Assembly (NCBI GenBank): GCA_038243585.1
Contig: JBBSQY010000011.1
Coordinates: 16,154-80,153 of the forward strand
Origin: Candidatus Sumerlaeales bacterium
GTDB taxonomy: Bacteria; Sumerlaeota; Sumerlaeia; Sumerlaeales; Sumerlaeaceae
Direction of reading: 5' to 3'
Length of the DNA: 64,000 nt
In this document: in pieces, positions 47,029-62,700 of the stretch
How the letters are laid out: each line of letters starts with the position of its first letter
Position numbering within the stretch: the first letter of the stretch is position 1
Notes under the pieces: generated by a model
What the model was told of the DNA's origin: nothing
Databases searched by the model: none
What the model saw: only the letters and a program-made list of their open reading frames with translations
Position numbers and translations under genes: made by a program

Positions 47029-47769
47029 ATGCTCGCGTTAATACCCCTGTTTTTTCTTACGGCCCTGGCGTATTCCATGGCGGGATTTGGTGGCGGATCC
47101 ACCTACCTGGCGCTCCTTGTTCTTTTTGATCTGCCTCACGATTCAGTTAGAACAATCGCGTTAATGTGTAATGTAGCTGTGGTGACCTTCGGCACCTGGC
47201 ATTTTGCCAGGGGCGGACATCTGAGACTGCAAAAGGTTCTGCCGTTCGTGGTAACGTCAATTCCCATGGCTTATTTGGGCGGCACGATCCAGATTAGTAA
47301 GACTCTATTTACATTCTTGCTTGGGATATCGCTGGCGGTGGCGGCGGCGCGAATGTTATGGGTGGGTAAAGCCATTGAGCCGACTACAACAGTGAAACCG
47401 CAAACTATATGGTTGGTCGGAGCCCCTTTGGGTGCGATGCTGGGATTTCTTGCGGGCATTGTGGGAATCGGCGGAGGGATTTACCTGGCTCCCGTGCTCC
47501 TTTTTCTGGGTTGGGCTAACGCCAAAGAAATGGCGGCCGCAGCAAGTTTTTTCATCCTTGTCAATTCACTGGCGGGCCTGGCCGGACAGGCAACACGAGG
47601 CATTAATTTTGAGATGAACCTTCTGCTTCCGCTCCTTGTCGCCGTGTTGATGGGAGGACAGATCGGAAGCAGGCTGGGCACTTATAAACTGCCGAAGCTT
47701 GCGATTCAGAAACTTTCGGGGGCTTTAATTCTGCTGGTGTCGGGCCGCCTGCTCTGGGCGCTGATATGA
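47029..47769 (+). CDS. TauE/SafE (DUF81) family anion exporter embedded in the moa operon
   Basis: AGFGGGSTYL and IVGIGGGIYLAP motifs and eight TM helices. It starts 1 nt after the moaC stop and overlaps moeA by 4 nt. Confidence 0.7.
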   Translation: MLALIPLFFLTALAYSMAGFGGGSTYLALLVLFDLPHDSVRTIALMCNVAVVTFGTWHFARGGHLRLQKVLPFVVTSIPMAYLGGTIQISKTLFTFLLGISLAVAAARMLWVGKAIEPTTTVKPQTIWLVGAPLGAMLGFLAGIVGIGGGIYLAPVLLFLGWANAKEMAAAASFFILVNSLAGLAGQATRGINFEMNLLLPLLVAVLMGGQIGSRLGTYKLPKLAIQKLSGALILLVSGRLLWALI

Positions 47770-48980
47770 TTGATGTGAAAGAAGCTCAACAGATCATCCT
47801 TTCAACCGTTCGCGTTCAGCCGGCTGAGGAATGCGGGCTGTCGGAAGCCTGCGGGCGCGTTTTGGCTGAAGACCTGGCGTCGCCTATTTCCATGCCGTTG
47901 TTTGACAACTCGGCAATGGATGGCTATGCTTTGCGGAGCTGCGATGTCGCAGCGGCCACGGAGGACAATCCAGTTTATCTGACCCTCTCGGGAGAAGTGG
48001 CTGCGGGAGATGGCGTTGAATCCGGAATGATGCTCCAGCCGCATCACGCGGCGCAGATATTTACCGGGGCAATGGTGCCGGCGGGGGCGGATGCCGTGAT
48101 ACGGCAGGAAGATGTAACCGCAGAGGAAACAAAGATTACAATTAAGCGGGCAGTTAAGCTCAATGAAAACATCCGGTTTATGGGGGAAGAAATAAGGCAC
48201 GGAGATAAGGTGCTGACGGCGGGGACAAGGCTATCTCCCGCCGGAGTGGGCGTGCTGGCGAGTTTGGGCCAAACGAGCATTTCCGTATTTTCTCGACCAC
48301 GAGTGGGAATTTTAGTGACTGGTTCGGAAATCGTCGGCGCAACGGCTGACCTTCGGCCGGGTAAGATTTTCGACTCGAATTCATTCGCGCTTGCGGCAGC
48401 ACTTCGGGAATTGGACATACCAGTCACGTTTCAGAAAACTTGCATTGATGACCGGGAAACACTGCAGCGGGAGCTTATTGACGGATTGAACCAGACCGAT
48501 GTGCTTCTGGTAACTGGTGGGGTTTCCGTGGGGAAATATGATTTCGTGAAAGAAACGGCCGCGAAGGTCGGCATTGAAGAGTTATTCTGGCGCGTAAAAC
48601 AAAAGCCGGGCAAGCCGATATTTTTTGGAGCCACCACTGACAGGACCAAACTTTTTTTCGGCCTTCCGGGAAATCCGGCCTCTGTTTTAGTTAGCTTTTA
48701 CGAATACGTGCGCCCTGCGCTATTGAGTGCCATGGGGATGAGAGGTCCCTTTCTTACAGCCACAATAGCAACGCTTAAAAACGACTTCTCAAAACGCGTT
48801 GGCCTAACCCATTTTTTAAAGGGCAACCTTGCCTCGGACGGAACGGTCGAAATTCTTGAGCGTCAGGGATCGCACATGATGTCTTCGTTCGCCAGGGCAA
48901 ATTGCCTGGTGGTTTTGGGCGAGGCTGTTAACGATCTAGCCAAAGGAGACAAGGTGGAGGTTCACCTTTTAGCTGTATGA
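47766..48980 (+). CDS. moeA: Molybdopterin molybdotransferase
   Basis: MoeA architecture with SPISMPLFDNSAMDGYA and LVTGGVSVG motifs; 404 aa. Confidence 0.85.
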   Translation: MIDVKEAQQIILSTVRVQPAEECGLSEACGRVLAEDLASPISMPLFDNSAMDGYALRSCDVAAATEDNPVYLTLSGEVAAGDGVESGMMLQPHHAAQIFTGAMVPAGADAVIRQEDVTAEETKITIKRAVKLNENIRFMGEEIRHGDKVLTAGTRLSPAGVGVLASLGQTSISVFSRPRVGILVTGSEIVGATADLRPGKIFDSNSFALAAALRELDIPVTFQKTCIDDRETLQRELIDGLNQTDVLLVTGGVSVGKYDFVKETAAKVGIEELFWRVKQKPGKPIFFGATTDRTKLFFGLPGNPASVLVSFYEYVRPALLSAMGMRGPFLTATIATLKNDFSKRVGLTHFLKGNLASDGTVEILERQGSHMMSSFARANCLVVLGEAVNDLAKGDKVEVHLLAV

Positions 48981-49201
48981 AAATTCGAGTGTTGTATTTC
49001 GCGGCTATAAGAGAGCAGATGGGCCAGGCGGAAGCCACAATTGAAGTGGCTCCCGGCGAAACGCCGTCAAGCATGGCGAAGCAGCTTATGGGTTCGGATG
49101 CGACTTTGCTGTTCGCGGTCAACGATGAACTTGTCGCAAAGGACTATGCCTTGGCAGACGGCGATCAGTTAGCCTTTATTCCCCCCATGGCAGGCGGGTG
49201 A
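48977..49201 (+). CDS. moaD: Molybdopterin synthase sulfur-carrier subunit
   Basis: 74 aa ubiquitin-like protein ending in the diagnostic Gly-Gly (FIPPMAGG). ATGA overlaps on both sides. Confidence 0.7.
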   Translation: MKIRVLYFAAIREQMGQAEATIEVAPGETPSSMAKQLMGSDATLLFAVNDELVAKDYALADGDQLAFIPPMAGG

Positions 49202-49623
49202 GGATGCTGATAAAACTGACATCGGATGTGATTGACGTTTCAGAAGCACTTGCCTATGTTCGCGACCCATCGTGCGGAGCTGTTTCTATGTTTGAGGGCA
49301 ATATTCGAGACGAGAATCAGGGTGAGCTGGTGTTGAATCTCGAATATGAGGTGTACGAACAGCTTTTTACAAAAGAAGTTGAACGCATCGCTGCGGAAGC
49401 CAACGAAAAATGGCGCGTTCATGAGATGGCTATTGTGCAGCGGGTGGGTTTGCTGCAGGTGGGTGATACCGGCATCGTTATTTGTGTAAGCAGCGCACAC
49501 CGCCGCGACGCGCTTGAGGGACTTTCGTATATGATCGAAGAGTTCAAAAAGCGAGCGCCGGTCTGGAAAAAAGAGCGTACAGACGGCGGCGATAAATGGA
49601 TAAATTGGGGGCCGCAGATATAA
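49198..49623 (+). CDS. moaE: Molybdopterin synthase catalytic subunit
   Basis: 141 aa with MoaE motifs (GAVSMFEGNIRD, ICVSSAHRRDA, PVWKKE). Confidence 0.8.
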   Translation: MRMLIKLTSDVIDVSEALAYVRDPSCGAVSMFEGNIRDENQGELVLNLEYEVYEQLFTKEVERIAAEANEKWRVHEMAIVQRVGLLQVGDTGIVICVSSAHRRDALEGLSYMIEEFKKRAPVWKKERTDGGDKWINWGPQI

Positions 49624-49759: not shown

Positions 49760-50137
49760 ATGGCCGAAGATATGTTCCACTTGGTAAGCAACCTGAACAC
49801 GGATATTTCTGTTCCCGCGAACGGTAAAACCAGCAAGGTGATTTACCAGGACGAACACCTGAAAGCGGTTTTGTTTGGCTTTGCGCCCGGCGCGGGTTTG
49901 GTTGAACACACTGCACCCATGCCTGGCATCCTGTATTTTGTCAGAGGCGAAGCCGAATTGTCACTGGGCAATCAGCAGAAGGAAGCCTCAGGCGGCCTGT
50001 GGGTTCACATGAACCCGAATCTGCCTCACAGCATCCTGGCTACGACTGAAACAGTAATGCTCCTTTTGATGCTTAAATGTGGAAAACCCTCTGCAAAAGA
50101 ATCAACCCCAGTTGAGTCTGATGAAACTTCAGATTAA
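49760..50137 (+). CDS. Cupin-domain protein
   Basis: A roughly 120 aa small-barrel cupin pattern (G...H.H......YFV.G) with possible metal ligands H-x-H. It lies immediately upstream of the molybdoenzyme operon. Confidence 0.5.
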   Translation: MAEDMFHLVSNLNTDISVPANGKTSKVIYQDEHLKAVLFGFAPGAGLVEHTAPMPGILYFVRGEAELSLGNQQKEASGGLWVHMNPNLPHSILATTETVMLLLMLKCGKPSAKESTPVESDETSD

Positions 50138-50558
50138 GAGTCACAGCATAAGATTCCGAATTACGATGGATGAAATGTTGGAGTTATCGACGCACAGGCA
50201 ACTGGCTTTTGAAACCCATGTCCCCCAAGGCGGAGGCGAAGTCGCCACGCTGCGATATGGTGTTCAATACCTGCCAGATATTGCCGCGTCTGATCTCAAC
50301 TTATTCCCGTTCGGCATGACCCTGGTTTTAAGCGAGACAGACTATACCGATCTTGCTAATCCGTCAAACGAAGGCATATACGTGCGAAGGGAATATGCTG
50401 GAGAAAATGGAAAGCTGATCCGCTTCGTGGCCTATATTGAAAAAGATATGAAAAGCAAAAAAGACAAAAAACAAAAGAAGCATAAGAATCGCAAAGACGC
50501 CTCAGACGCTGCTAACGTGGAAACCCTATTACGACAACCGGAGGTAAACGAACTTTGA
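50079..50558 (+). CDS. Hypothetical protein with Lys-rich C-terminal tail, translationally coupled to the NarI-like gene
   Basis: No recognisable domain. The tail is DMKSKKDKKQKKHKNRKD. Its 3' end overlaps the next gene by 4 nt. An alternative start is the ATG at 50121. Confidence 0.4.
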   Translation: MENPLQKNQPQLSLMKLQIKSHSIRFRITMDEMLELSTHRQLAFETHVPQGGGEVATLRYGVQYLPDIAASDLNLFPFGMTLVLSETDYTDLANPSNEGIYVRREYAGENGKLIRFVAYIEKDMKSKKDKKQKKHKNRKDASDAANVETLLRQPEVNEL

Positions 50559-51664
50559 CTCTTATAAGACGTTTGATACAGCAGCTTCACTGGCCTTCGG
50601 TCTTCTGGGGGCTGCTGGCTATGAGTGTCCTTGCGGTGCTGATATTGGTCGGCAGTCGAAATCTTGCGGATTTTGACGCCGCCCTGGTTGGCTATACGTT
50701 CGCCTGCCTGTTTTGTCTGTTCGGCACAGTATACCGTTACTCTGTCTGGATCAGCAAGCCGCCAACGCGGCGGTATTGGACGCGCGGATGGCAGCTATTA
50801 TTTACCCCGTCCACTTGGCGGATGGGGGCCAGAATCAAACTGCTGCTAAGTGCCATCTGGGGGCGTCTGATATTTCAGTCCTTTGTTCTTAAACGGAGCA
50901 AACGGCGCTGGCTGGGTCACATGTTGCTGGCCTGGGGCAGCATGCTTGGGTTTGCAGTAACATTCCCCCTGGTGTTCGGTTGGATCCACTTTCAGCAAAA
51001 TGCCATTGAACCGGTACAGACCTACAAAGTAATGTTTTTCGGTTTTCAGGTCTCCACCATTCCCCTGACGGGCTTGATAAGCTGGTCGATTTTTCATGCC
51101 CTGGTTATTGCATCGGTCATGGTAATGGCAGGCGTTATGATCGTCATGGTGCGCCGTATGTTCGACATGGGGGCGGTTGCCGTGGAGCGGTTCTCAAGGG
51201 ATTATCTTCCGCTGCTTTTATTGTTTTCGGTCGCGTCGAGCGGGCTGCTGCTCTGGATCAGCTATGAGTGGTTCAACGGGCAGTTCTATAATGCTCTAGC
51301 CACTTTTCACGCTATTACCGTGATTGCGTTCCTGGTTTATCTGCCGTTCGGAAAGCTCTTTCACATCTTCCAGCGTCCCGCCTCCCTAGGGGTTGTCTTC
51401 TACCGGGTGGTGGGCGAGATGGGCAAGCCGGCGGTTTGTCCCGTTACCGGCCAACCGTTTGCGTCCGAACTCCAGACAAACGATCTTAAGCACGTATTGC
51501 CAGAACTGGGGTTTGACTACTCAGCGCAGGTGGCGCCACCATCTACAGTCGAGACTAACCCAATCACCACGCCTGTTCCGGCGTGGAATGAGATTTCTCC
51601 GCAGGGGCGCCGGATCGTTATCGGGCGTGCCCACAACATAGCAAGACGTGGCAAATTTGATTAA
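50555..51664 (+). CDS. NarI-like (nitrate-reductase-gamma superfamily) membrane cytochrome b with C-terminal soluble extension
   Basis: Five predicted TM helices carry conserved His residues (GHMLLAWG, FHALVIAS). The motif YLPFGKLFHIF matches the PFxKLxH signature of NarI, HdrE and DsrM, as I recall it. About 90 aa of cytoplasmic tail are extra relative to NarI. Confidence 0.6.
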   Translation: MTLIRRLIQQLHWPSVFWGLLAMSVLAVLILVGSRNLADFDAALVGYTFACLFCLFGTVYRYSVWISKPPTRRYWTRGWQLLFTPSTWRMGARIKLLLSAIWGRLIFQSFVLKRSKRRWLGHMLLAWGSMLGFAVTFPLVFGWIHFQQNAIEPVQTYKVMFFGFQVSTIPLTGLISWSIFHALVIASVMVMAGVMIVMVRRMFDMGAVAVERFSRDYLPLLLLFSVASSGLLLWISYEWFNGQFYNALATFHAITVIAFLVYLPFGKLFHIFQRPASLGVVFYRVVGEMGKPAVCPVTGQPFASELQTNDLKHVLPELGFDYSAQVAPPSTVETNPITTPVPAWNEISPQGRRIVIGRAHNIARRGKFD

Positions 51665-51675
51665 AGGTTATTAAA

Positions 51676-53940
51676 ATGGCAGACGTTCCAGCGGCAGATC
51701 CTCGACACTTAATAGAGGAATATGGACCTCACATTTCCGATTCTCCGGTTACAGGCTGGAATGACAAACCCATTCCAGATAAACTCGTGGAAACTCATTG
51801 CTGTTTTTGCGGCATGCAGTGCGGTATCAAGCTCGCAGTTTCCGATAATAAGGTTGTGGGTTTTGAACCTTGGGAGGAGTTTCCTTTTAACGAAGGCCGC
51901 CTCTGTCCGAAGGGCGTCAAACGCTACATGCAGACCCACCATCCGGACCGCCTGCTGGACCCGTTGATCCGCACAGATTCCGGTTTCCGCAAGGCAACAT
52001 GGGACGAGGCGCTGGATCTGATCGTGTCCAAGATTCAGGACATTCAGAAGCGCCTCGGCCATGACGCCGTCGGCATGATGAGTGGTGTGTCCTTATCCAA
52101 TGAAAAGTCTTACCTGGTTGGCAAATTCGCTCGTCTGGGACTGCAGACGAAGCAACTGGATTACAATGGACGTTTCTGCATGGTATCGGCGGGAGCGGGA
52201 AACAAAAAAGCCTTTGGCATTGATCGCGCGGCCAACACCTGGCAGGACATTCCGGAGGCAGAGGTGCTGTTTGTTGCCGGCTCCAATGTCAGCGAATGCT
52301 TTCCGACCCTAATGCATTATATCTGGAAAGCCCGTGACCGCGGCGCCCAGGTTATCGTAGTCGATCCCCGCCTGACCCCTATATCGCGCACCGCAGAATA
52401 TCACCTGGCTTTGCGTCCGGGCACAGACAGCGCTCTTTACCAGGCGCTCCTTCATGAACTAATTCGCAACAACTGGCTGGATCACGAGTTCATCGCGGAA
52501 TGCTGCACCGGTTGGGAAGAATTGCGTACTTCTGTTGAAACCTGTACGCCTGAATGGGCCGGTGAAATTTGCGGTCTCGATCCCGATCTCATTCGTCGCG
52601 TTGCCGAAGTCTGGGGCAAGGCGAAAACCAGTTTCCTGATGCACGCCCGTGGCATCGAACAACACACAAAGGGCACCGACAACGTGCTCGGCTGCATCAA
52701 CCTGGTACTCGCCACCGGACGTATCGGGCGCAAGGGCTGCGGCTATGGTACAATCACCGGCCAGGGTAATGGCCAGGGCGGGCGCGAGCACGGGCATAAA
52801 TGCGATCAGCTTCCGGGTAACCGCGACATCGAAAACCCGGAGCATCGCGCCCACATCTGCAAGGTATGGGACATCACAGACGAGCAGTTGCCCCACAAAG
52901 GCGTCACCGCTGTGGAAATGTTTGAACAGGCCCACGACGGTGAGCTGGCAGCGATGATCAACATCTGTTGTAATCCCATCGTCAGCCATCCCGACACCAA
53001 TTATCTTCGTGAGGCCCTTGAACGGCTGGAGTTCTTTGTCGTCATCGACTTCTTCATGAGCGAGACGGCGCGCTATGCGGATGTGATTTTGCCGGGCTCT
53101 CTTCATGAGGAAGAAGAAGGCACATCCACCAGCGCGGAGGCGCGAGTAATTCGCATACGCGCGGCGGTTACGCCACCCGCCAATGCACGGTCCGACAGTT
53201 GGATCTTGATAGAAATAGCGCGCCGGCTGGGTCAGGGTAAATACTTCCCTTACGGAAACACTCAGGAAATTTTTGAAGAACTCCGCCTGGCCAGCTCCGG
53301 TGGCACCGCCGACTACGCGGGGATCACCTGGGAACGCATCGAACGGGAAATGGGCGTATTCTGGCCCTGCCCTACAGTGGATCACCCCGGCACGCCCCGC
53401 CTTTTCGAGGATCGGAAAAGCTACCACGCCGACGGCAAGTTTCACCTCTACCCGACGCCGTACCGTCTGAGCGCGGAAGTGCCGGATGCGGAGTACCCCA
53501 TCTACTATACCAGCGGCCGCAGCGTGTTTCATTATCTTAGCGGCACCCAAACTCGGCGCATCAAGTTTCTAGTCGATCAATGCCCGGGCCCCACCTGTGA
53601 GATGCACCCGGAACTTGCCACGGCCCTGGGACTCGTGGACAGGCAACTGGTCACGGTAGAATCGCGGCGCGGCAAGCTGACAGTTCCGCTGGAGGTCGTC
53701 GACACTATTCGTCATGACACCGTATTCGTCCCGTATCACTGGGCCGAACGCCTGGCGGCGAATCAGATCACCATTCGCGCTCTGGACCCCATCAGCAAAA
53801 TGCCCGAGTTTAAGGTAGCAGCCTGCCGGGTTCGGCCGGCCACGCCAGAGGAAGCACAGCAGCTGCGTGTGGACTATGGCGACCTTAGACTACTGGCCAC
53901 TTCAAAAGACGCTTCGCCTAGAGGAGAAAACCGACCATGA
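51676..53940 (+). CDS. Molybdopterin (bis-MGD) oxidoreductase catalytic subunit, NasA/NarB-like assimilatory-nitrate-reductase family, no Tat signal
   Basis: N-terminal 4Fe-4S motif C-x2-C-x3-C...C-P-K-G (HCCFCGMQCGIKL...RLCPKG). The 754 aa length matches NarB/NasC-type enzymes. No twin-arginine leader is present. Confidence 0.75.
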   Translation: MADVPAADPRHLIEEYGPHISDSPVTGWNDKPIPDKLVETHCCFCGMQCGIKLAVSDNKVVGFEPWEEFPFNEGRLCPKGVKRYMQTHHPDRLLDPLIRTDSGFRKATWDEALDLIVSKIQDIQKRLGHDAVGMMSGVSLSNEKSYLVGKFARLGLQTKQLDYNGRFCMVSAGAGNKKAFGIDRAANTWQDIPEAEVLFVAGSNVSECFPTLMHYIWKARDRGAQVIVVDPRLTPISRTAEYHLALRPGTDSALYQALLHELIRNNWLDHEFIAECCTGWEELRTSVETCTPEWAGEICGLDPDLIRRVAEVWGKAKTSFLMHARGIEQHTKGTDNVLGCINLVLATGRIGRKGCGYGTITGQGNGQGGREHGHKCDQLPGNRDIENPEHRAHICKVWDITDEQLPHKGVTAVEMFEQAHDGELAAMINICCNPIVSHPDTNYLREALERLEFFVVIDFFMSETARYADVILPGSLHEEEEGTSTSAEARVIRIRAAVTPPANARSDSWILIEIARRLGQGKYFPYGNTQEIFEELRLASSGGTADYAGITWERIEREMGVFWPCPTVDHPGTPRLFEDRKSYHADGKFHLYPTPYRLSAEVPDAEYPIYYTSGRSVFHYLSGTQTRRIKFLVDQCPGPTCEMHPELATALGLVDRQLVTVESRRGKLTVPLEVVDTIRHDTVFVPYHWAERLAANQITIRALDPISKMPEFKVAACRVRPATPEEAQQLRVDYGDLRLLATSKDASPRGENRP

Positions 53941-54674
53941 CTGTCGTAATACAGGATATGTTCATTGATTTTCAACGGTGTATCGGATGCATGGCCTGCG
54001 TGGCCGCATGCTCCGAATGCCACACCCACCGCGGCAACTCTATGATCCACGTGGATGAGGTTGATCCAGGTCACAGCACTCAGACCGTACCCATGATCTG
54101 CATGCACTGTAAGGTGCCCACCTGCGCCATGAGTTGCCCTGCGGACGCTATTAAAATGGACGAGCAGGGTATTGTGCATTCTTCGCTGAAGCCCCGGTGC
54201 ATCGCTTGCCGCAACTGTGAACTCACCTGCCCGTTTGGCGTGCCCATCATTCAAGAGGACATCCAGCAGATGCAGAAGTGTGACATGTGTTATGATCGCA
54301 CCAGCGCGGGCAAAAAACCTATGTGCGCCACGGTTTGTCCAACCGGTGCCATATCCTATGGTAACGTGGAAGATATGAAACGGAACCGCCCTCACTCCAA
54401 GCCGATAAATCAGTGGCGGTTTGGAAAGCAACTGGTTGAGACGCGAGTTTACGTGATGGTACCGCATGACATTGACGAGATGCTCGTTGATTGGCCGGAG
54501 ATGTTAAAGGGTGCACAGGGCCCGGTGGACCTTGCTGTTCAACTGCGTGACCGATTTATCCAAATGGGAAAACTTCCGACGGAAGTTCCTCTCGGGCCTG
54601 TAGCGGCGACACCAAACCAGATTCCCGAAAATCTCCAACCAACAACGGTACCAGGGGGGCCTGAATTCTTATGA
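53937..54674 (+). CDS. Four-cluster [4Fe-4S] ferredoxin subunit (DmsB/NarH/HybA-like)
   Basis: Four Cys clusters: CIGCMACVAAC, CMHCKVPTCAMSCP, CIACRNCELTCP and CDMCYDR...CATVCP. ATGA overlaps with both neighbours. Confidence 0.75.
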   Translation: MTVVIQDMFIDFQRCIGCMACVAACSECHTHRGNSMIHVDEVDPGHSTQTVPMICMHCKVPTCAMSCPADAIKMDEQGIVHSSLKPRCIACRNCELTCPFGVPIIQEDIQQMQKCDMCYDRTSAGKKPMCATVCPTGAISYGNVEDMKRNRPHSKPINQWRFGKQLVETRVYVMVPHDIDEMLVDWPEMLKGAQGPVDLAVQLRDRFIQMGKLPTEVPLGPVAATPNQIPENLQPTTVPGGPEFL

Positions 54675-55219
54675 GCCAGTCGAACTATCCGCAAAATCCT
54701 CTCCCGCCAAAATGGCGTGAAGATTTTCCCTATGAAACCGAAGGTGACGACTTTATCACCCGCCGCGACTTCACCCGTTTTCTTTGCATCATCAGCGCGG
54801 GTTTCGCTACCGGCAATGCGTGGATTCTGGGGAAGTCCCTCGTGGATAAAAAGCATAAGACGCCTGTTGTCGCTGTCTGCAAAACAGGCGATCTGCAACC
54901 GGGCAAATGGATGGTTTTTAAGTATCCCGATGATATAACACCCGCCATGCTTATCCGGCGCCTCAACGGAGACTTCATCGCCTATATGCAGAAGTGCACC
55001 CATCTCGCCTGCCCTGTTGCTTACGAGCAGGATCGTGACGGCGGCGGTGAAGGATTATCCTGTCATTGTCATAATGGACATTTCGATATTAACACCGGTG
55101 AAGGAATCGCGGGGCCACCGAAAGGGCTTCGGCCACTGCCGCGTATTAAGCTGGAATTTAAGGGTGACCAGATACTCGCTGTCGGATTCGATTATCATAG
55201 AGGGATTGGCCGCTCATGA
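54671..55219 (+). CDS. Rieske [2Fe-2S] protein of the high-potential (bc1/arsenite-oxidase AioB) type with Tat-like N-terminal membrane anchor
   Basis: Box I CTHLAC (C-x-H-x2-C) and box II CHCH (C-x-C-H) include the disulfide cysteines. The N-terminus TRRDFTRFLCIISAGFATGNAWILG resembles an uncleaved twin-arginine signal and anchor. Confidence 0.7.
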   Translation: MSQSNYPQNPLPPKWREDFPYETEGDDFITRRDFTRFLCIISAGFATGNAWILGKSLVDKKHKTPVVAVCKTGDLQPGKWMVFKYPDDITPAMLIRRLNGDFIAYMQKCTHLACPVAYEQDRDGGGEGLSCHCHNGHFDINTGEGIAGPPKGLRPLPRIKLEFKGDQILAVGFDYHRGIGRS

Positions 55220-55647
55220 AAAAAACGGCTCCCGAAACCTGGGTCGACACATCTCCTATTCCACCAACAAAAATTGTACCGACCCCTGATTTTCCGAAAC
55301 GTGCCGGAGTCGCAGCGACCGGCACCGCCATACTTATTTTCGTAGCCATGTTTTGTGTGTTTCAGTACTGGCTGCTTACAGCGACTTTAGAAGCATACCA
55401 CGCGGGTGACGACGACCTGCCGCTGGGCGCGTTCCTGGCATCAGTGGGTTGCTTTGTGATGGCTGTGGCACTCACCCTGATGGGAGAAATCGCGCTGATG
55501 AAACAGCAGGATTATCTTCGAAAAAATACGGCTGTGCCTGTGAAAATCCACGCGTATGAGCCCCCGGTTAACCGCGCTGGACCAAGCGGCGCTCCCTCAC
55601 CGAGTCAAACGATGACTACGGAAGCAGGCGGCGGCGACTCCGGCTGA
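55216..55647 (+). CDS. Small two-TM membrane protein of unknown function in the molybdoenzyme operon
   Basis: Two hydrophobic helices (AILIFVAMFCVFQYWLL, ASVGCFVMAVALTLMGEIAL). ATGA overlap with the Rieske gene. No known motif. Confidence 0.4.
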   Translation: MKKTAPETWVDTSPIPPTKIVPTPDFPKRAGVAATGTAILIFVAMFCVFQYWLLTATLEAYHAGDDDLPLGAFLASVGCFVMAVALTLMGEIALMKQQDYLRKNTAVPVKIHAYEPPVNRAGPSGAPSPSQTMTTEAGGGDSG

Positions 55648-55707
55648 TTAGCCACACCTGTAGTCTATTTCGCCACTGCCGCAATTATAGAAAGCCGTTC
55701 CCCCTCC

Positions 55708-57318
55708 ATGAAGGATCAAACTAAAGCCACCGTTGTTCTCACCGCGAACACTATAGCATTCGCCATCTGCTTTGCCTGTTGGATGATGAATGCTGTGCTC
55801 GTAACGTTCCTATCTACCAACGGCGTATTCGACTGGACTTCTGGTCAGGTAGGAATGCTGCTGGCCACTCCGGTGCTTACGGGCTCATTATTGCGGTTGC
55901 CCGTTGGAATGATGACCGACCGATTCGGAGGACGCGTCGTTTACACTGTACTGATGCTCCTGGCGGCGGCGGCGCTGTTTCTTAATTCCTATGCGAATTC
56001 CTACACACAGTTTCTGATTGCGGCGCTGGGTTTCGGCATTTCCGGAGCGTCCTTTGCCGTGGGCGTAGCTTATACCTCCGTATGGTTTCCGAAAGAACGT
56101 CAAGGCACCGCACTGGGCATATTTGGAATGGGAAACGCAGGGACGGCGTTGACACTGATGCTTGCTCCCACACTTCTGAAGATGCTGACCGACGGTGGAG
56201 CAAACCTGGATGGCTGGCGGAATCTGCCTCGGGTCTACGCGGTAATTCTTGTAATTACGGCGGTCATCTTTTACTTTGTGACATTTGCCAAAAAGCCTGC
56301 TGCAGTTAACCGCACAATGAGGCAACGCCTCGCTCCGCTGGGTCAGGTGCGCGTTTGGAGATTCGGGTTGTACTATGCCCTGTTGTTTGGCGGCTTTGTT
56401 GCCTTATCCAACTGGCTGGTCCCCTATTACGTGAAAGCTTACGGTCTTACCCTGGCTGCCGCCGGGCTGTACGCCACCATTTTTTCGTTACCGTCAGGCT
56501 TGTTTAGAGCGGTAGGCGGATGGCTCAGCGACCGGCTGGGCGCAAGGATGGTTATGCACGGTGTTCTCGCCACTGTCGCTCTCATCACTTTTGCATTATT
56601 CTTTCCAAAGATGGACATCATAACACCGGGCGAGGGAATCCTCGCAAAATTTCCAGGAATTGTAGTTTCTCGAACCGATACCGAAATTTCCGTAAAGCGA
56701 GATAAGTCTGATAAGGTTGATACATATCAACTAAGCGGTAAAGCGCCCAAAGGCGTGACAGAGTCTTCCGGTGCTGAAAGAGACCAGAAATTTACGCTTA
56801 TCCCAAAGACGGACAGTTGGCAGGAATGGGTTGGCAAAAGTAGCATGGGGCCAGACGGGACGATTAAGTACGAGCGCTTTAAGACCGGGGATAAAATAGC
56901 CCAGCGGGAACTGCTTGCCAAGGGTTCGACCCATATTTATTTTCAGGCAAACGTATACATCTTCACGCTGCTGGTCTTGTTGCTCGGCATGGCCATGGGA
57001 ATTGGAATGGCAGCTGTTTACAAACACATCCCCACGTATTTCCCCGATGATGTTGGCATAGTCGGCGGGCTGGTCGGAGTCATTGGCGGTCTCGGGGGAT
57101 TTGTGCTTCCGATAATCTTTGGCTGGTTGCTCTCGACCACAGGTATCTGGACGACATGCTGGGTGTTTCTCTTTCTTATTACTGTCGGGTGTCTGTTGTG
57201 GATGCGGCTGGTGCTCCGTTCAGCGGTTAATGAGTCGGCACCTCATCTGAAAGAGCATTTTGATAAGCAAGAAATCACAGGATCGTATAATATGGCATCG
57301 CGCGCTGCAGAAAAATAA
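55708..57318 (+). CDS. narK: MFS nitrate/nitrite porter (NarK/NNP family) with an unusually large insertion in the central loop
   Basis: Two copies of the NNP signature G-x3-D-R-x-G-x-R (MMTDRFGGRVVY, WLSDRLGARMV) and 12 TM helices. About 110 extra residues of hydrophilic sequence lie between the halves (residues about 300-410). Confidence 0.7.
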   Translation: MKDQTKATVVLTANTIAFAICFACWMMNAVLVTFLSTNGVFDWTSGQVGMLLATPVLTGSLLRLPVGMMTDRFGGRVVYTVLMLLAAAALFLNSYANSYTQFLIAALGFGISGASFAVGVAYTSVWFPKERQGTALGIFGMGNAGTALTLMLAPTLLKMLTDGGANLDGWRNLPRVYAVILVITAVIFYFVTFAKKPAAVNRTMRQRLAPLGQVRVWRFGLYYALLFGGFVALSNWLVPYYVKAYGLTLAAAGLYATIFSLPSGLFRAVGGWLSDRLGARMVMHGVLATVALITFALFFPKMDIITPGEGILAKFPGIVVSRTDTEISVKRDKSDKVDTYQLSGKAPKGVTESSGAERDQKFTLIPKTDSWQEWVGKSSMGPDGTIKYERFKTGDKIAQRELLAKGSTHIYFQANVYIFTLLVLLLGMAMGIGMAAVYKHIPTYFPDDVGIVGGLVGVIGGLGGFVLPIIFGWLLSTTGIWTTCWVFLFLITVGCLLWMRLVLRSAVNESAPHLKEHFDKQEITGSYNMASRAAEK

Positions 57319-57355
57319 TGCGATCCAGGTCGCAGAGAGCAGTCCGCGCCCTCCC

Positions 57356-57973
57356 ATGATTGTTGCCATAATGGTTGGCGGAAAAAGCCGAAGAATGGGG
57401 CGAGACAAGGCGGCGATAGAACTGGACGGAATGAGCCTGCTTGACCGGGTTGCCAGTGCCGCTTCAGATGCGGGGCACCCAGTGCTTGTAGTGGGACGGA
57501 ATACTTCGAACAGGCCTGTGCCTGTCCCATCTCAATGGGAAACCATCGCCGATGATAAACCAGACCAAGGCCCCCTGGGAGGGCTGGCCACAGCGCTGCG
57601 CTATGCCTGTGGAAGCAGTGTGCTACTCTGCGCAACGGATACCCCCGCGATTGAACCTCAAGCCTTTCGATGGTTAGCCGCTCAGGCGGCGGCATATGGT
57701 AGTTCGGAATATGACGGGGTTGTGGCGACTTGGGAAGGAAAGCCGGAACCTCTATTTGCGGTTTACTTTTCGTCAGTTCTCCCAATGGTTAATCGACGAA
57801 TGACCTGTAAGCAGCTTTCGATGCAGGGTTTGATTGAAGCGGGAAATTTTAAGCTGATCGAATTACCAAAGGTTCACGCTGGGGCCGTTGCCGACGTAGA
57901 CTCTCCCGGAGATCTTTCAAACATTATGTTTCTGCGGCAGCAAGCGGTGGTAAAGACGCCGACATATGACTGA
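57356..57973 (+). CDS. mobA: Molybdenum cofactor guanylyltransferase
   Basis: MobA N-terminal motif IMVGGKSRRMGRDKA...LDG and overall length of about 205 aa from the ATG at 57356. The 237 aa ORF-track start at 57260 overlaps narK and is unlikely. Confidence 0.7.
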   Translation: MIVAIMVGGKSRRMGRDKAAIELDGMSLLDRVASAASDAGHPVLVVGRNTSNRPVPVPSQWETIADDKPDQGPLGGLATALRYACGSSVLLCATDTPAIEPQAFRWLAAQAAAYGSSEYDGVVATWEGKPEPLFAVYFSSVLPMVNRRMTCKQLSMQGLIEAGNFKLIELPKVHAGAVADVDSPGDLSNIMFLRQQAVVKTPTYD

Positions 57974-58642: not shown

Positions 58643-59722
58643 TTAGAAAGAGCGCATTCCGGAAATCATCCTTTTCATCAGCCCCAGGAACGTCGCTATC
58701 CAGGCCGCCAGGGCTATGTAGATAAACACCCGTGGGATAACCAGCAAAAAGTCCAGCCGCATTACTGTTGCCAGACTGTAGGTGCAGACGGTGTACATGG
58801 CTAGCGGAAACACAGCCCCCCAATACTGCGGATCATATTGAAGAGGGTAACGTTTAAAGAGGTGACGCCAGATGCCCAGTATCACCAGCATCGGAATCCA
58901 CCATGTGCCGGTGGCCCAATAAAAGATGGTAGCTCCTTTGAGAAACGGGAGCATCGACATCAGGAATGGCGCATCCACCGAATTTTGAATGAGCCGAGTG
59001 CCGGCTAGTGTGGATATGGCCATTGCTCCCATATTTATCCAATACGGCGGCGAAAGGTCGCCGGGTGAAAACTTGAAAAATGTGTACCTGTAAAAAATGA
59101 GCGAAATCATCCAGGTATAAAGCATACCGCCCCAAAGCCACATAGAGAGCGCCACGAAGTTGAGTTCAACCCTGTACGGTTGGGGCAGGTGTGCCGCCAT
59201 CAGCGCCGTTAAAACGACTACGGATTGCGTGGCCACAACAGAAAGCAACCACGCCCCGGAGATGCCGCTGGATAAATCCGGTTTAATTTCTTTGACGGTC
59301 CATGCGGTAAATATTGCATAGGTGAGGCTTACCCACAACAGCGCCGCAATGGCCAGCATGGCAGCGGCAATGTTAAATTGCTGATATATTATTATAAACT
59401 GTGATCCCACGACACAGGTACTAGCCACAAAGGTAAAGAAGCCAGGACCGACCTGGTGACTTACCATATCTGAAAAAAAGTGACGAGGATAATAAACCAC
59501 CCGGGTCATATTAACAAACATCAATACTAGGTAAACAGCCAGGTTCAGGAAGAATAGCCCCTCGGCTAGCCATGGCACCGAAAGCAAGTGGGCGGCGATG
59601 GACAGAGTCCCGGTCGCCATTGCCATCGCAAAATAAGAGGGTGGGAAATCGCGGACAACGTTACGCAGGCCCTTTTCAGGTATCGCAGCAGCATTTTGCA
59701 GTTTAGAAAGATCGTTCATCAA
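58643..59722 (-). CDS. TehA/Mae1/SLAC1-like tellurite-resistance/dicarboxylate transporter (TDT) family anion channel
   Basis: Ten TM helices. The N-terminal region DFPPSYFAMAMATGTLSIAAHLL is typical of the TehA family as I recall it. Confidence 0.6.
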   Translation of the reverse strand: MMNDLSKLQNAAAIPEKGLRNVVRDFPPSYFAMAMATGTLSIAAHLLSVPWLAEGLFFLNLAVYLVLMFVNMTRVVYYPRHFFSDMVSHQVGPGFFTFVASTCVVGSQFIIIYQQFNIAAAMLAIAALLWVSLTYAIFTAWTVKEIKPDLSSGISGAWLLSVVATQSVVVLTALMAAHLPQPYRVELNFVALSMWLWGGMLYTWMISLIFYRYTFFKFSPGDLSPPYWINMGAMAISTLAGTRLIQNSVDAPFLMSMLPFLKGATIFYWATGTWWIPMLVILGIWRHLFKRYPLQYDPQYWGAVFPLAMYTVCTYSLATVMRLDFLLVIPRVFIYIALAAWIATFLGLMKRMISGMRSF

Positions 59723-59799: not shown

Positions 59800-62700
59800 G
59801 TGCCTGCCCAGGTATTGAGTCAGAAGAAACTTTCCATGGGGTGTGGAGATTCTGAGAGAAAATCACGTTTCAATAGAAGTCCGTTTTCCTGGCTTCATCG
59901 GAAGCTTTTGTTTATGGAGTTCATCAACTTGCGTGAACGAACCCTGCCGGCTGGTTTGAACTTGCAACACCTGTCTTCCACGGCCACTGATTACGGTATG
60001 ATCCTCTACAATTTAATTTCCCGCGGCAGGTTTTCCCAACTCATAAACATCACCTTGGGAATTTGCATTTTTGTTTGGCTTTGTGCAAATGGTTCAGCGG
60101 ATAATTTAGCTGTGGGAAGTGGGACACTGGCAATGGATGCTGCTGGCAAGCCCACTCAATTGCAATTCGCCGATGGCGTCGAGTTCAGGTTTAATATGCA
60201 GGTACCGATTTGTTTTTTAGAGACAGAAAAAGGCAACATTGCACCGACGACAGTCGAAGCCAACGAAACGACCCTGAAGGTTATTTTTGAAGACGGATCA
60301 ACCGCTAGTTTCGAGCTGGAATCGGATCCTGATTTCACACTGTATCGCCTGAAAGTCCTTGACCTTAAAACCTCAGCGGCGAAAATGAGACTTTTTAGCC
60401 TGCCCATTCCGAAAGGTGCCAGTGTGAGTGGGACGTTAAACGGATATTTTATTAAAGATAAAGCGGTTGCTTTAATGGCGGGAACTCCTGATGTGCTTGC
60501 GTCAACAGCCTTCAGTGGCTCTCGCTCCGCAGATCGTGCCGGGTGTAGTCATCAGTTCCAACAGACCACAAGCTCTAAGCATGGAGATCATGCCGCAAAG
60601 TTTACCGCGATCTGTGATGAGAAGCCAAGTGGCTGGAGCATGAGGGGCCGGACCATTACCCCCTCGATAGACATTGAAAAGATGATCGGCCTGAGTGCCT
60701 GGATTCACGGAGATGGTCTCGGTGAACAGCTAAAGTTTCAACTTGATGACGGCAAGGGCGGTGCCCGAGACTACTATGTACCCGTTGATTTTAAAGGATG
60801 GCGTCACGTCCAAATGACTTCAGCATCACTAGACACAATGGGCGAAGACCGCCTTGCGGGTTTGAATCTTTATTACAACAGCGTCCCGTCAGAAGCGAAC
60901 GTCGCTTGTGTCATTGACGATATCCGCGGAATATTTGAAAAGGATGACGGCACAACTTCAACCGTCTTGATTGAAGATTTTGAAAAGGCGGAATCACCCT
61001 GGTGGAGTGATACAGTTCAGACGATCAATCTGGAAATGGAAGAACAGTATGGTTATGAAGATGCCGTTTTTGGTATCATTGCCTGTCCGGAAGAGCGTTT
61101 CTTCGACGTAGTTCAAAGATTTGAATCGGCTGCAGAAATTCCGGTTCCCCGCCCCGGTGGCGTATGGAACAAGCATTCTCCACTTGTGCAAAAATCGTAT
61201 CTCTTCCTCCAGTCGTTTTCTGAAGCGCAGTTTGATGATGCGCTGGCGCTGGCGAAACGTGGCGGTTTTGAACAGATTCTTCTTGGACAGGGATCGTGGT
61301 GCCAATCAACAGGACATTATGAAATCAACCGTAAGAGTTTCCCGGATGGTCTTCCGGGGCTTGTCCGAATTGTTAAGCGATTCCGCGATGAGGGCATTGA
61401 TGTAGGCTTGCATTTGCTGGGTGCATCCATAGATTCAAACGACCCTTACATTACCCCGGTACCTGATCCGCGCCTGGTAACTGATGCATCTACTACCCTG
61501 ACAACAAATATGGATGAGGTAACTACCACGGTCATTGTTGAAGACATGCCCGCAGGCTTTCCGAGCGAAGATGGCGGGTATGAGGGTAAAGGAACAGTAC
61601 TGCGTATTGGCGATGAACTCGTCAGTTATGGTGAGCGCACCAACAGCGCCCCGTATACTTTTACAAGGTGCAAGCGCGGATACCTCGGCACTCGCGCTGC
61701 GACTCATTCAAGTGGCGCGCAGGTGCAGCATCTGGCGCGATCCTTTGGTTACCACATGTTCGATATGGACACTACATTGCTGGATGAAGTAACGTCCAAT
61801 TTTGCGGTCGTCGCCAATGCCTGTGACATTGGAATGCTCTACTTTGATGGCTCCGAATGGCTTCAGGGCGACCATCGTCGTTATAATGCAAAGTTGATTA
61901 AGGCCTACGTTGATAAGTTGGATCGGAAAGATATTATCATCCAGGCCAGCAGCTACTCCCACTACTCATGGCATCTGTTGGCGCGTTCGGCTTCGGCAGA
62001 TGGTCACGGAGATCTGAAAGGTTACCTTGAAGAGAGATCTCCGGGATTTGCATTAATGGAACGCGACGGTATGCCTCTTGATATTGGCTGGTATTATGGC
62101 TACGATGCCTCAGCCACACCGGATATGTATGAGTACATTCTGGGAACAACTATCGGTTACAGTGGCTCATTCTCTTACCAGGCTTCTGTAGCTGCCGCTC
62201 AGAAACATCCTTTTACGGGCGAGATCCTTGACCTGATTAAGCAGTATGAGTTGCTGCGCCTCTCCGGTCGCGTGCCCGACAAGATGCGGCAACTTCTCCA
62301 AGTTGCGAAAGAACTGATGGGCAGGCCGCCTGAAGATGCAAACCGTCCTACGGAATTGCGGCGCGACTATCACCTGACAGAAGTCGACGGCAAAGAAGCG
62401 TTTCAGCGTATTGTCTATACGCCGTGGAAAACGGCCGACTCTCCTGGAAAAGAACTGTCATGGAAGGTTGATGTGACGACAGGTCCGGCACAAATTGGCC
62501 TGCAGATCCAGGCACAGAGCGGGCCATGGCCGAACGCTAGTGCATCTTATACTACTTCATCTGCCATCCTGTTGGAAGGTTTTGAGAACCTTGATGGTTG
62601 GGTAGGTGATGGTAAATTCGGTACAACTTCGGACGGTGTGACACAAACCCTTACTTTGTCGACCGATCATACGCCCGAAGGAACCAGCTTTGCCGTTTAT

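Follow-up and report, generated by a model that had tools for sequence, protein, structure and literature searches.

Within a 64,000-nt stretch of DNA from Candidatus Sumerlaeales bacterium (assembly GCA_038243585.1, contig JBBSQY010000011.1, positions 16,154 to 80,153 of the forward strand), hereafter the window, five tightly coupled genes occupy positions 50555-55647 of the + strand and encode a NarI-like cytochrome b, a NasC-like bis-MGD catalytic subunit, a four-cluster ferredoxin, a Rieske protein and a small membrane protein of the DUF6755 family. Genes for the synthesis of the molybdenum cofactor (Moco) precede this operon, while genes for a NarK-family transporter and MobA follow it. 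The coordinates of these features, numbered from the first position of the window, are collected in the table below.

Table. Genes of the operon and its surroundings in the 64-kb window.
Position	Strand	Gene or product	Length (aa)	Domain or family match
45096-49623	+	Moco biosynthesis: moaA, moaC-mog fusion, moeA, moaD, moaE		
47029-47769		TauE/SafE-family permease, inserted among the Moco genes		TauE confirmed by Pfam
49760-50137	+	Cupin		Cupin_2, 26.5 bits, just under its cut-off
50079-50558	+	DUF7009 protein; likely start about 50121		DUF7009, 36.6 bits
50555-51664	+	NarI-like cytochrome b	369	
51676-53940	+	NasC-like bis-MGD catalytic subunit	754	Molybdop_Fe4S4, Molybdopterin, Molydop_binding
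53937-54674	+	Four-cluster ferredoxin	245	Fer4_11, 6.6e-21
54671-55219	+	Rieske [2Fe-2S] protein	182	Rieske, 3.3e-10
55216-55647	+	DUF6755 membrane protein	143	PF20540, 38.2 bits (cut-off 27)
55708-57318	+	NarK-family (NNP) nitrate/nitrite MFS transporter		TIGR00886, 193 bits (cut-off 311.7); MFS_1, 2e-41
57260-57973	+	mobA (Moco guanylyltransferase); likely true start ATG 57356		NTP_transf_3, 9e-30; MobA NCBIfam models, 65-82 bits, below their cut-offs
58643-59722	-	SLAC1/TehA-family anion channel		PF03595, 5.6e-49

These are genes rather than chance ORFs, as each has strong family hits and the gene order recurs across phyla. The junctions DUF7009/cytochrome b, catalytic subunit/ferredoxin, ferredoxin/Rieske and Rieske/DUF6755 each overlap by 4 nt, while an 11-nt gap separates the cytochrome b gene from that of the catalytic subunit, so that four of the five junctions are overlaps. 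The upstream Moco genes, whose junctions overlap by 4-8 nt, are found in the same order and with 50-75% identity in Sumerlaeota loci whose genes carry precomputed Pfam hits; as no moeB is present in the cluster, its description as a complete moa operon in the initial annotation was slightly generous. The cupin and DUF7009 genes are conserved only in the Sumerlaeota versions of the operon, being present in four loci. The MFS protein carries the NarK-family signatures GMGNAG (position 140) and GGLGG (position 460), together with a hydrophilic insert of roughly 100 aa (aa 307-407).

The catalytic subunit has no Tat leader and exhibits an N-terminal 4-Cys [4Fe-4S] motif (C41/42, C44, C48, C76), as well as the molybdenum ligand Cys168 followed by Met169. 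Among NCBIfam profiles, NasC is the best hit with 826 bits, which remains below its cut-off of 1100, against 588 bits for Fdh-alpha, 309 for NapA and 63 for NarG. The motif DYNGRFCMVSA is shared with NasC, and in a neighbour-joining tree the family forms its own clade (200/200 bootstraps), sister to nirB-linked NasC enzymes (183/200) and lying with Nas/Nap to the exclusion of formate dehydrogenases (190/200). Regarding the substrate, another compound or the reverse direction, namely nitrite oxidation, chlorate or selenate reduction, or formate oxidation, could be envisaged, since the NasC score is below its curated cut-off, the best solved-structure relatives by sequence are formate dehydrogenases, and a Rieske exit route resembles that of oxidases such as Aio. 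However, no Nas structure appears among the PDB sequence hits, so that this ranking is uninformative, and the Cys-Met motif, rather than the Cys/Sec-His of formate dehydrogenases, argues against the latter. Besides, NarK fusions, nirB-nirD-HPP in Sorangium, and RIC/ScdA, NnrS, Rrf2 and Crp genes in 23/80 loci, a neighbour pattern also met in Apibacter, all point to nitrate and nitrite chemistry, while the carriers are ordinary heterotrophs and not nitrifiers. Another substrate or the reverse direction thus appears very unlikely.

The ferredoxin is of the DmsB/FdnH/NarH type, with 16 Cys in four groups and neither transmembrane helix nor signal peptide; its best NCBIfam hits, i.e. DmsB, HybA and FDH-beta, are all far below cut-off and its best PDB match is FdnH (1kqf_B). 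The cytochrome b has six predicted helices in a NarI-type fold and a conserved cytoplasmic tail of roughly 100 aa, although it falls below the NarI Pfam cut-off and the hhalign match to NarI is weak (probability of 2.6%). The proposed haem ligands are H122 and H270 on the cytoplasmic side, which are the best conserved, and H252 plus H181 or H145 on the outer side. The dihaem character put forward in the initial annotation is only partly supported, since three His are near-universal but the second ligand of the outer haem varies, with H181 in 77/121 representatives, H145 in 74/127 and neither of them in Brevibacillus.

The Rieske protein has a conserved N-terminal tail, a twin-arginine motif (T-R31-R32-D-F-T-R-F), a moderately hydrophobic anchor helix and the CTHLAC...CHCH boxes that include the bc1/Aio-type disulfide cysteines. 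The RR motif and the CxHxxC..CxCH boxes each occur in 65/66 homologues, and a classic Tat motif (DRRGFMKTMAG) is found in Brevibacillus. An AF2 model (pLDDT 86.4) has AioB (1g8j) as its best Foldseek match (E 7e-8, 30% identity), while by sequence AioB and the Thermus bc Rieske tie at about 37.7 bits; these closest structures, AioB and bc-complex Rieske proteins, are all Tat-exported. Together with the low hydrophobicity of the anchor, this suggests that the Rieske domain most likely sits on the outer face of the membrane, opposite the molybdenum subunit, a point missed in the initial annotation, even though the charges flanking the anchor are symmetric (+2.2 on each side) and the positive-inside rule does not fix its orientation. 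The high potential assigned to this protein in the initial annotation is not established, as the Ser and Tyr that raise the potential in bc1 are Gly and Phe here. The DUF6755 protein has two helices with basic and so probably cytoplasmic ends, an outer loop carrying the conserved motif Q-x-W-L-L-T-A-T-x-E/N-A-Y-x-G-G-D, and no conserved Cys or His; a homologue, named DUF6755 family protein by PGAP in Deinococcus, lies directly after the Rieske gene in most loci.

While the initial annotation considered this gene set as a chimera, it is not a one-off but a conserved family. The order cytochrome b, catalytic subunit, ferredoxin, Rieske is kept in 63 of 66 sufficiently long loci, out of at least 557 species genomes that carry it, across more than 12 phyla and including Sumerlaeota (the lineage of the window), Acidobacteriota, Planctomycetota, Myxococcota, Deinococcus, Brevibacillus, Apibacter and Geothrix. 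Curated libraries give only generic names to these proteins, and no description of the gene order was found in the databases and literature that could be searched. The possibility that there is no complex, a soluble NasC-type enzyme using the ferredoxin as donor with the membrane and Rieske genes merely co-located, has nothing positive in its favour and is simply the default if complex formation is not assumed; considering the conserved order, the overlapping stop and start codons, and a catalytic clade that is monophyletic and co-extensive with the partner genes, it appears remote.

Of note, transporters are closely linked to this system. NarK-like genes are fused or adjacent in 42/80 loci, and in 25/80 loci the cytochrome b is fused to the C-terminus of a NarK-type transporter, which places its N-terminus inside the cell, the six predicted helices putting the conserved tail inside as well. 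In 14/80 other loci, a SLAC1 gene follows DUF6755 in the operon and never co-occurs with NarK; NarK and SLAC1 are mutually exclusive alternatives, with 28, 10 and 0 loci having NarK only, SLAC1 only and both, respectively (Fisher p = 1e-5), and HPP fills the role in Sorangium. In the window itself, the SLAC1/TehA gene is convergent with the operon and its membership of the system is uncertain.

Taken together, the core proposal of the initial annotation, that is a NasA/NasC-type catalytic subunit wired to the membrane through a NarI-like cytochrome b, a four-cluster ferredoxin and a Rieske centre in an arrangement matching no described architecture, was supported by every computational test that could be run. 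The five genes would encode one membrane-bound complex reducing nitrate to nitrite with electrons from the quinol pool, a reading considered somewhat more likely than not, as complex formation, the quinol donor, the sidedness of the molybdenum subunit and the role of the Rieske protein in quinol oxidation are inferred, with subunit contacts being assumed and without experimental data. In this proposal, the catalytic subunit and the ferredoxin dock in the cytoplasm on the large conserved surface and tail of the cytochrome b, whereas the Rieske domain, exported by the Tat pathway and held by its uncleaved signal anchor, lies on the outer face next to the outer haem, a conserved beta-sheet loop of the cytochrome b and the outer loop of DUF6755. 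Quinol would be oxidised at this outer site with release of protons outside, electrons would cross the membrane through the b haems to the ferredoxin and then to molybdenum, and nitrate brought in by NarK would be reduced with consumption of cytoplasmic protons, i.e. a Nar-like, pmf-generating redox loop built around a Nas-type catalytic subunit. The physiological role may be respiratory (feeding NrfA or denitrification), assimilatory (next to nirBD in Sorangium), or both, depending on lineage; an assimilatory role is not established, and many loci sit next to NO-stress genes. Against the proposal as a whole, no nitrite reductase lies in the 64-kb window.

The similarity of the Rieske protein to AioB, which binds its molybdenum subunit directly and carries it across the membrane, favours instead an Aio-like periplasmic enzyme, where the catalytic subunit and the ferredoxin assemble with the Rieske protein in the cytoplasm, are carried across on its Tat signal and reduce nitrate outside the cell, with electrons passing from quinol through the cytochrome b to the Rieske, the ferredoxin and molybdenum, and with NarK, SLAC1 or HPP importing the nitrite produced. 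The Rieske is the only subunit with an export signal, the catalytic subunit, ferredoxin and Rieske genes are translationally coupled in that order, and this layout gives the Rieske a clear relay role. Yet the closest catalytic relatives are cytoplasmic NasC enzymes, the cytoplasmic-side haem ligands and the tail are the most conserved parts of the cytochrome b and would have no partner, its outer loops are small, a dedicated oxyanion transporter is almost always present, and no Tat-proofreading chaperone gene is conserved in the operon. This alternative is thus deemed unlikely, though not negligible.

NarI oxidises quinol without a Rieske protein and the need for one here is unexplained. While keeping the same layout, the outer Rieske could then be the entry point for electrons from periplasmic carriers such as cytochrome c, cupredoxin or HiPIP, or the high-potential exit of a bc1-like bifurcated quinol oxidation whose low-potential branch ends at nitrate instead of at a Qi site. 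Known relatives of this Rieske type all exchange electrons with periplasmic carriers (Aio) or with cytochrome c1/f (bc complexes). However, no cytochrome c or cupredoxin gene is conserved in the 80 loci, Rieske homologues, all of 164-192 aa, are never fused to another redox domain, and, as inferred from standard potentials, electron entry from cytochrome c against the membrane potential would leave little driving force, which makes this possibility doubtful.

Compared with arsenite oxidase AioAB, the Rieske subunit is the closest structural relative and carries the only twin-arginine signal of the complex, but AioA has a [3Fe-4S] cluster and no protein ligand to molybdenum, and scores only 128 bits here; besides, Aio has neither four-cluster ferredoxin nor cytochrome b, is soluble or peripheral in the periplasm and works as an oxidase. 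While the initial annotation held that enzymes of this family with a Rieske partner are essentially the arsenite oxidases, haloarchaeal and Methanoperedens Nar are also genetically coupled to a Rieske protein and a cytochrome b (NarGH with NarB/NarC; PMC4683180, PMC2483277). There, the catalytic subunit is a Tat-exported NarG type facing outside the cell and the cytochrome b is of the bc1/b6f type, whereas here they are NasC-like and of the NarI/EtfD fold, respectively. As for the NarI-fold modules in EtfD, HdrE, DsrM, QmoC and TcuB, none is known to work with a Rieske protein or with a Mo-bisPGD enzyme of the Nas type.

The assimilatory nitrate reductases NasC/NasA/NarB are the closest catalytic family, with 42-45% identity, the same DYNGRFCM and FS0 cluster motifs and no Tat leader, but classical Nas enzymes are soluble and take electrons from NAD(P)H, through NirB/NasB and the NirD-type Rieske ferredoxin NasG, or from ferredoxin or flavodoxin. 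With the respiratory NarGHI of the E. coli type, the overall logic proposed here is shared, that is a cytoplasm-facing molybdenum subunit and a four-cluster Fe-S subunit on a NarI-fold haem b anchor, together with NarK and Moco genes, where quinol oxidation at the outer face would give a redox loop. NarG, however, is of roughly 1250 aa with an Asp ligand (its model has a cut-off of 1084 bits) rather than NasC-like with a Cys ligand, and the Fe-S subunit of Nar is of about 510 aa; here, the anchor has six helices plus a long tail, NarJ is absent, and the complex would comprise an extra Rieske protein and a DUF6755 protein.

Every substantial ORF between 45096 and 58637 lies on the + strand, with very short or negative spacers. 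In the course of this stretch, moaA, a moaC-mog fusion, a TauE-family permease, moeA, moaD and moaE are followed, after a 136-nt gap, by a cupin gene, a DUF7009 gene and the five core genes, i.e. the membrane subunit, the molybdopterin oxidoreductase, the Fer4_11 protein, the Rieske protein and the DUF6755 protein; after a further 60-nt gap come the NarK-like MFS transporter, mobA and an HD-domain phosphohydrolase. Searches against Pfam and NCBIfam confirm each domain assignment made in the initial annotation, and the observation is thereby confirmed, with two small corrections. While the moa operon was described as complete and the five genes as translationally coupled, moeB is absent from the cluster and only four of the five junctions around the core genes are true overlaps, of 4 nt each, the cyt b/Mo junction being an 11-nt gap. 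A promoter and terminator scan gave counts at chance level and does not define transcript boundaries. Of note, the TauE/SafE-family anion permease is inserted inside the Moco biosynthesis operon, between moaC-mog and moeA, with 0 to -4 nt junctions, and a paralogue lies 32 kb upstream; molybdate, sulfite or nitrite are possible substrates.

Coordinates of the features considered in the window and, where indicated, in related loci.
Coordinates	Strand	Feature	Size
14487-15263		TauE/SafE-family permease, second copy
16630-20484, 28517-31477 and 59800-63327		Two very large proteins built of CarboxypepD_reg/prealbumin-like repeats, and a further ORF	1284 and 986 aa; 1175 aa
31939-32976, 34456-35499, 40681-42504		Three genes sharing a C-terminal Golvesin_C domain: two paralogous Amidase_3 genes and one NAGPA phosphodiester glycosidase
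47029-47769	+	TauE/SafE-family permease
50555-51664	+	Membrane subunit (cytochrome b)	369 aa
51430-51664	+	Cytochrome b tail
51676-53940	+	Molybdopterin oxidoreductase (Mo subunit)	754 aa
53937-54674	+	Fer4_11 protein (ferredoxin)	245 aa
54671-55219	+	Rieske protein	182 aa
55216-55647	+	DUF6755 protein	143 aa
55708-57318	+	NarK-like MFS transporter	536 aa
56626-56929	+	Hydrophilic insert of the transporter (aa 307-407)	about 100 residues
58643-59722	-	SLAC1/TehA-family anion channel
L015:6825-9035 (related locus)		Example of a NarK-cytochrome b fusion
L086:7774-8886; L088:4953-5993 (related loci)		CxxC...CxxC motif of the cytochrome b tail in Deinococcus and Brevibacillus

Regarding the catalytic subunit, the evidence points to a nitrate-reductase-type enzyme rather than a formate dehydrogenase. 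Among NCBIfam models, the best hit is the NasC equivalog (NF047855), at 826 bits but below its cut-off of 1100, followed by Fdh-alpha (TIGR01591) at 588 bits (cut-off 666), the haloarchaeal NasA model at 397 bits (cut-off 1000), the NapA models at 292-309 bits (cut-offs 904-930) and narG (TIGR01580) at 63 bits (cut-off 1084). Against PDB sequences, the top hits are cytoplasmic formate dehydrogenases (about 497 bits), ahead of Desulfovibrio NapA (359), but no Nas or NarB structure appears in that list and this ranking cannot decide the question. The Mo-ligand region reads DYNGRFC168M169VSAG, which is identical in pattern to nirB-adjacent NasC enzymes and to NapA, whereas FDHs have C/U-H at the same position. 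A neighbour-joining tree was built with reference sequences taken from annotated plasmid records, namely NasC-type enzymes next to nirB/nirD in Paenibacillus, Skermanella, Mycobacterium and Deinococcus grandis, NasA-type enzymes, NapA, three FdhF/FdhA and YdeP as outgroup. While this distance tree with few references is adequate for the question asked but not a definitive phylogeny, the enzymes from five-gene operons are monophyletic in 200/200 bootstraps, with Brevibacillus they are sister to the NasC group in 183/200, and all Nas/Nap exclude FDH in 190/200. The reading as a formate dehydrogenase was rejected on the basis of the Cys-Met motif, the NCBIfam ranking and this tree. An exact-sequence look-up of the Mo subunit returned nothing, although a homology search retrieved a 100%-identical NCBI entry on an 81-kb contig, itself likewise not on record, which reflects an indexing gap rather than biology.

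The ferredoxin exhibits four Cys groups, C15/18/21/25, C55/58/63/67, C88/91/94/98 and C115/118/130/134, which means four cubane clusters, with no transmembrane helix and no signal peptide; its best solved relative is FdnH. As for the cytochrome b, the model has six long hydrophobic helices, a three-stranded sheet in the loop between helices 3 and 4, and a tail of about 100 residues. Across 150 cluster representatives, H122, H252 and H270 are near-invariant (112/117, 116/118 and 106/113, respectively), but H145 (74/127) and H181 (77/121, Asn in 33) are not. An hhalign alignment against E. coli NarI, which gave only a weak match, pairs H252 and H270 with NarI H187 and H205, its outer-haem and inner-haem ligands. 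H122 and H270 are therefore assigned to a cytoplasmic-side haem, and H252 plus a variable partner to an outer haem, so that the designation as dihaem in the initial annotation is likely but not secure. Interestingly, the cytoplasmic tail of the cytochrome b has a zinc-ribbon-like CxxC...CxxC motif in Deinococcus and Brevibacillus, of which only C295 remains in the window, and the site is thus degenerate in this lineage.

The Rieske protein carries the bc1/Aio box pattern CTHLAC...CHCH, including the two extra cysteines that form a disulfide in those proteins, and this pattern is present in 65/66 homologues. The Ser and Tyr that raise the potential in bc1 (CPCHGSxY) are Gly and Phe here, so that the high potential claimed in the initial annotation is unproven. 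What was missed there is the N-terminus, where a conserved tail (W15, D18-F19-P20) is followed by a twin-arginine motif, T-R-R-D-F-T-R-F here and RR[DQ]F[TA]KF in the family, found in 65/66 homologues, and then by a helix too weakly hydrophobic to pass a standard transmembrane threshold. In Brevibacillus laterosporus, the motif is a textbook Tat signal, DRRGFMKTMAGAVGVFAV. The AF2 model (pLDDT 86.4) has a long N-terminal helix followed by a Rieske domain; its best structural matches are AioB chains (E 7e-8, about 30% identity), and bc1 Rieske subunits align along their full length. A soluble Rieske of the NirD/NasG type was considered but rejected, as the protein has the bc1/Aio cysteine pattern and a twin-arginine anchor, and NirD of Sorangium matches it only marginally. 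The positive-inside rule was uninformative for orienting the anchor, the net charge being +2.2 on both sides, and no natural fusion of the Rieske with other domains, which could have fixed its topology or partners, was found. The DUF6755 protein passes the PF20540 gathering score (38.2 bits against a cut-off of 27) and is a two-helix hairpin with basic ends, whose outer loop carries a conserved Q-x-W-L-L-T-A-T...A-Y-x-G-G-D motif; no Cys or His is conserved and a cofactor is consequently unlikely.

While the initial annotation took the gene set for a chimera, a scan of genomes rejected the possibility that it is lineage-specific. A search with the membrane subunit returned 4642 hits at E below 1e-5 among the 8000 candidates scored, which, where named, are called 'hypothetical' or 'MFS transporter', and an exhaustive profile-free search of 1.84 billion cluster representatives gave 630 at E below 1e-10 and 125 at E below 1e-30. 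The closest match is a Candidatus Sumerlaeales MAG (78% identity) with the same surroundings, i.e. moa genes, cupin, DUF7009, NarK and mobA. Other carriers include Sorangium, Bdellovibrionales, many Acidobacteriota, Planctomycetota, Obscuribacterales, Omnitrophota, Chthoniobacteraceae, Binatia, Dormibacterota, Longimicrobiaceae, Ardenticatenaceae and Acidimicrobiia. Of 66 loci that extend at least 3.9 kb beyond the cytochrome b gene, 63 have Mo, FeS and Rieske in that order, and the three exceptions look like broken assemblies. Cultured carriers are Deinococcus sp. NW-56, D. psychrotolerans, D. wulumuqiensis, Brevibacillus laterosporus B9, Apibacter, Geothrix sp. and several Sorangium strains; by catalytic-subunit homology only, Flavobacterium sp. 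RSSB_23 and Oscillatoria amoena may also carry it.

The genomic context points to nitrate and nitrite chemistry and to a cytoplasmic active site. In 25 of 80 loci (e.g. L015, L018, L029, L032 and L036, loci from other genomes), the cytochrome b is the C-terminal half of a 740-780-aa protein whose N-terminal half is a NarK-like MFS transporter, a natural fusion that is probably the reason why NCBI names the stand-alone cytochrome b 'MFS transporter', a propagated misannotation. As MFS termini are cytoplasmic, the fusion also places the N-terminus of the cytochrome b in the cytoplasm and, with six helices, the conserved tail is then cytoplasmic too. A fused or separate NarK is present in 42 of 80 loci, whereas 14 loci have instead a SLAC1/TehA-type anion channel directly after DUF6755. 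Among 46 loci with wide flanks, 28 have NarK only, 10 have SLAC1 only, none has both and 8 have neither (Fisher p = 1e-5), three of these 8 being Sorangium loci that carry an HPP-family gene. A dedicated oxyanion transporter is thus a near-constant, interchangeable part of the system, which is what a cytoplasm-facing active site requires. The window itself has both NarK and, convergent to the operon, a SLAC1/TehA-family channel, so that the link of the latter to the system is unclear here. Besides, the NarK-family transporter of the window carries a hydrophilic insert between two transmembrane segments, which is unusual for NNP transporters.

In Sorangium, the operon follows nirB-nirD-HPP. In 23 of 80 loci, and in Apibacter, the neighbours include RIC/ScdA, NnrS, Rrf2 and Crp/Fnr genes, a set that typically accompanies nitrite-producing respiration. 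In addition, protoglobin-domain histidine kinases and sigma-54 response regulators recur next to the operon (loci L016, L020, L030, L046, L050 and L059), and one homologue of the cytochrome b (P0100, 526 aa) carries a protoglobin domain itself, which hints at gas (NO or O2) sensing tied to the system. No nitrite reductase lies within the 64-kb window, but published Sumerlaeota surveys report nrfAH as widespread in the phylum (PMC8092238) and a nitrate-to-nitrite step feeding NrfA is therefore plausible for this lineage, though this is an inference.

Taken together, a Nar-like redox loop built on a Nas-type catalytic subunit is the mechanism favoured here. In this model, quinol is oxidised on the outer face, at a site formed by the cytochrome b (invariant TFPLVFGW-x-F at the end of helix 3, plus the beta-sheet loop), the Rieske cluster and the DUF6755 loop; electrons cross through the b haems to the four-cluster ferredoxin, then to FS0 and the Mo cofactor, and nitrate is imported by NarK and reduced in the cytoplasm. 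While folds, motifs, conservation and linkage come from computation, complex formation, the donor, the sidedness and the role of the Rieske are inferred. That the system is a multi-subunit membrane-associated nitrate reductase can be held with good confidence, and a cytoplasmic Mo subunit fed through the b haems appears more likely than not, but the participation of the Rieske in quinol oxidation is only tentatively proposed. The main alternative is an Aio-like arrangement, in which Mo, ferredoxin and Rieske are exported together on the Tat signal of the Rieske; the AioB-like fold of the Rieske favours it, but the conservation of the cytoplasmic-side haem ligands and tail, the small outer loops, the transporter linkage and the cytoplasmic sister clade argue against it. 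Another possibility keeps the layout but makes the Rieske an interface to periplasmic carriers or a bifurcation exit, which no conserved cytochrome c or cupredoxin gene supports.

Compared with NarGHI, the catalytic subunit is 754 aa with Cys168 as Mo ligand instead of the about 1250 aa and Asp ligand of NarG, the 245-aa Fe-S subunit with 16 Cys scores 41.7 bits with narH (TIGR01660, cut-off 524), NarH being of about 510 aa with three [4Fe-4S] plus one [3Fe-4S], and no NarJ assembly chaperone appears among the annotated window ORFs or the conserved neighbours. With NasC/NasA/NarB, it shares the Cys Mo ligand in the C-M motif, the N-terminal [4Fe-4S] and the absence of an export signal, but the curated cut-offs are not reached and the window operon has no NAD(P)H module, ferredoxin or flavodoxin gene as the soluble electron donor that defines Nas, the conserved partners being membrane and Fe-S proteins. 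Regarding Nap, the Mo subunit has no RR leader and no nap partner genes are present. For arsenite oxidase AioAB, the large-subunit and Rieske-subunit models score 127.7 bits (TIGR02693, cut-off 359) and 37.9 bits (TIGR02694, cut-off 95.65), even though the Rieske fold is closest to AioB. As in bc1/b6f complexes, the Rieske is Tat-anchored with the characteristic Cys/His boxes and disulfide cysteines, but the cytochrome b is not of the bc type. The closest published Rieske-linked nitrate reductases are the haloarchaeal and Methanoperedens Nar systems, which use an exported NarG and a bc-type cytochrome b (PMC4683180; PMC2483277). The modules are known, but their combination is widespread and no description of it was found in the literature, though most subscription journals were outside the search and an existing description cannot be ruled out; the Apibacter genome paper does not mention nitrate at all.

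It remains possible, though this is tentative, that the system represents a fourth architectural class of prokaryotic nitrate reductase alongside Nar, Nap and Nas, that is an energy-conserving quinol:nitrate oxidoreductase whose quinol-oxidising module is a previously unknown pairing of a Tat-exported Rieske protein with a NarI-fold cytochrome b and DUF6755, widespread in dominant soil and sediment phyla (Acidobacteriota, Planctomycetota, Myxococcota, Verrucomicrobiota, Sumerlaeota) and at present counted in surveys as 'nasA', 'napA' or a generic molybdopterin oxidoreductase. Nitrate reduction is the entry step to denitrification, to DNRA (dissimilatory nitrate reduction to ammonium) and to assimilation. 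If this family is a membrane-bound, quinol-linked enzyme, many Acidobacteriota, Planctomycetota, Myxococcota, Sumerlaeota, Deinococcus and some Bacteroidota and Firmicutes would have a nitrate-reducing, possibly energy-conserving, capacity that current marker-gene surveys mislabel or miss. It would also be the first case of a Rieske protein working with a NarI-fold rather than a bc-type cytochrome b, which bears on how quinol-oxidising modules evolved, and would show a Nas-type catalytic subunit recruited into a respiratory-style complex.

As to current labels, the PGAP pipeline of NCBI names the Deinococcus genes only as MFS transporter, molybdopterin oxidoreductase family protein, 4Fe-4S dicluster domain-containing protein, Rieske 2Fe-2S domain-containing protein and DUF6755 family protein, while JGI labels the catalytic subunit 'assimilatory nitrate reductase catalytic subunit' and the Rieske 'arsenite oxidase small subunit' or 'nitrite reductase/ring-hydroxylating ferredoxin subunit'. 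Sumerlaeota MAGs are reported to carry 'napA' (PMC10866078), yet the Sumerlaeota loci examined here had this five-gene system and none showed Nap partner genes; some of those calls may be this enzyme mislabelled by automated annotation. Elsewhere in the window, two very large proteins are built of CarboxypepD_reg/prealbumin-like repeats and three genes share a C-terminal Golvesin_C domain, one of them a NAGPA phosphodiester glycosidase; a NAGPA gene also lies upstream of the operon in the related contig L002.
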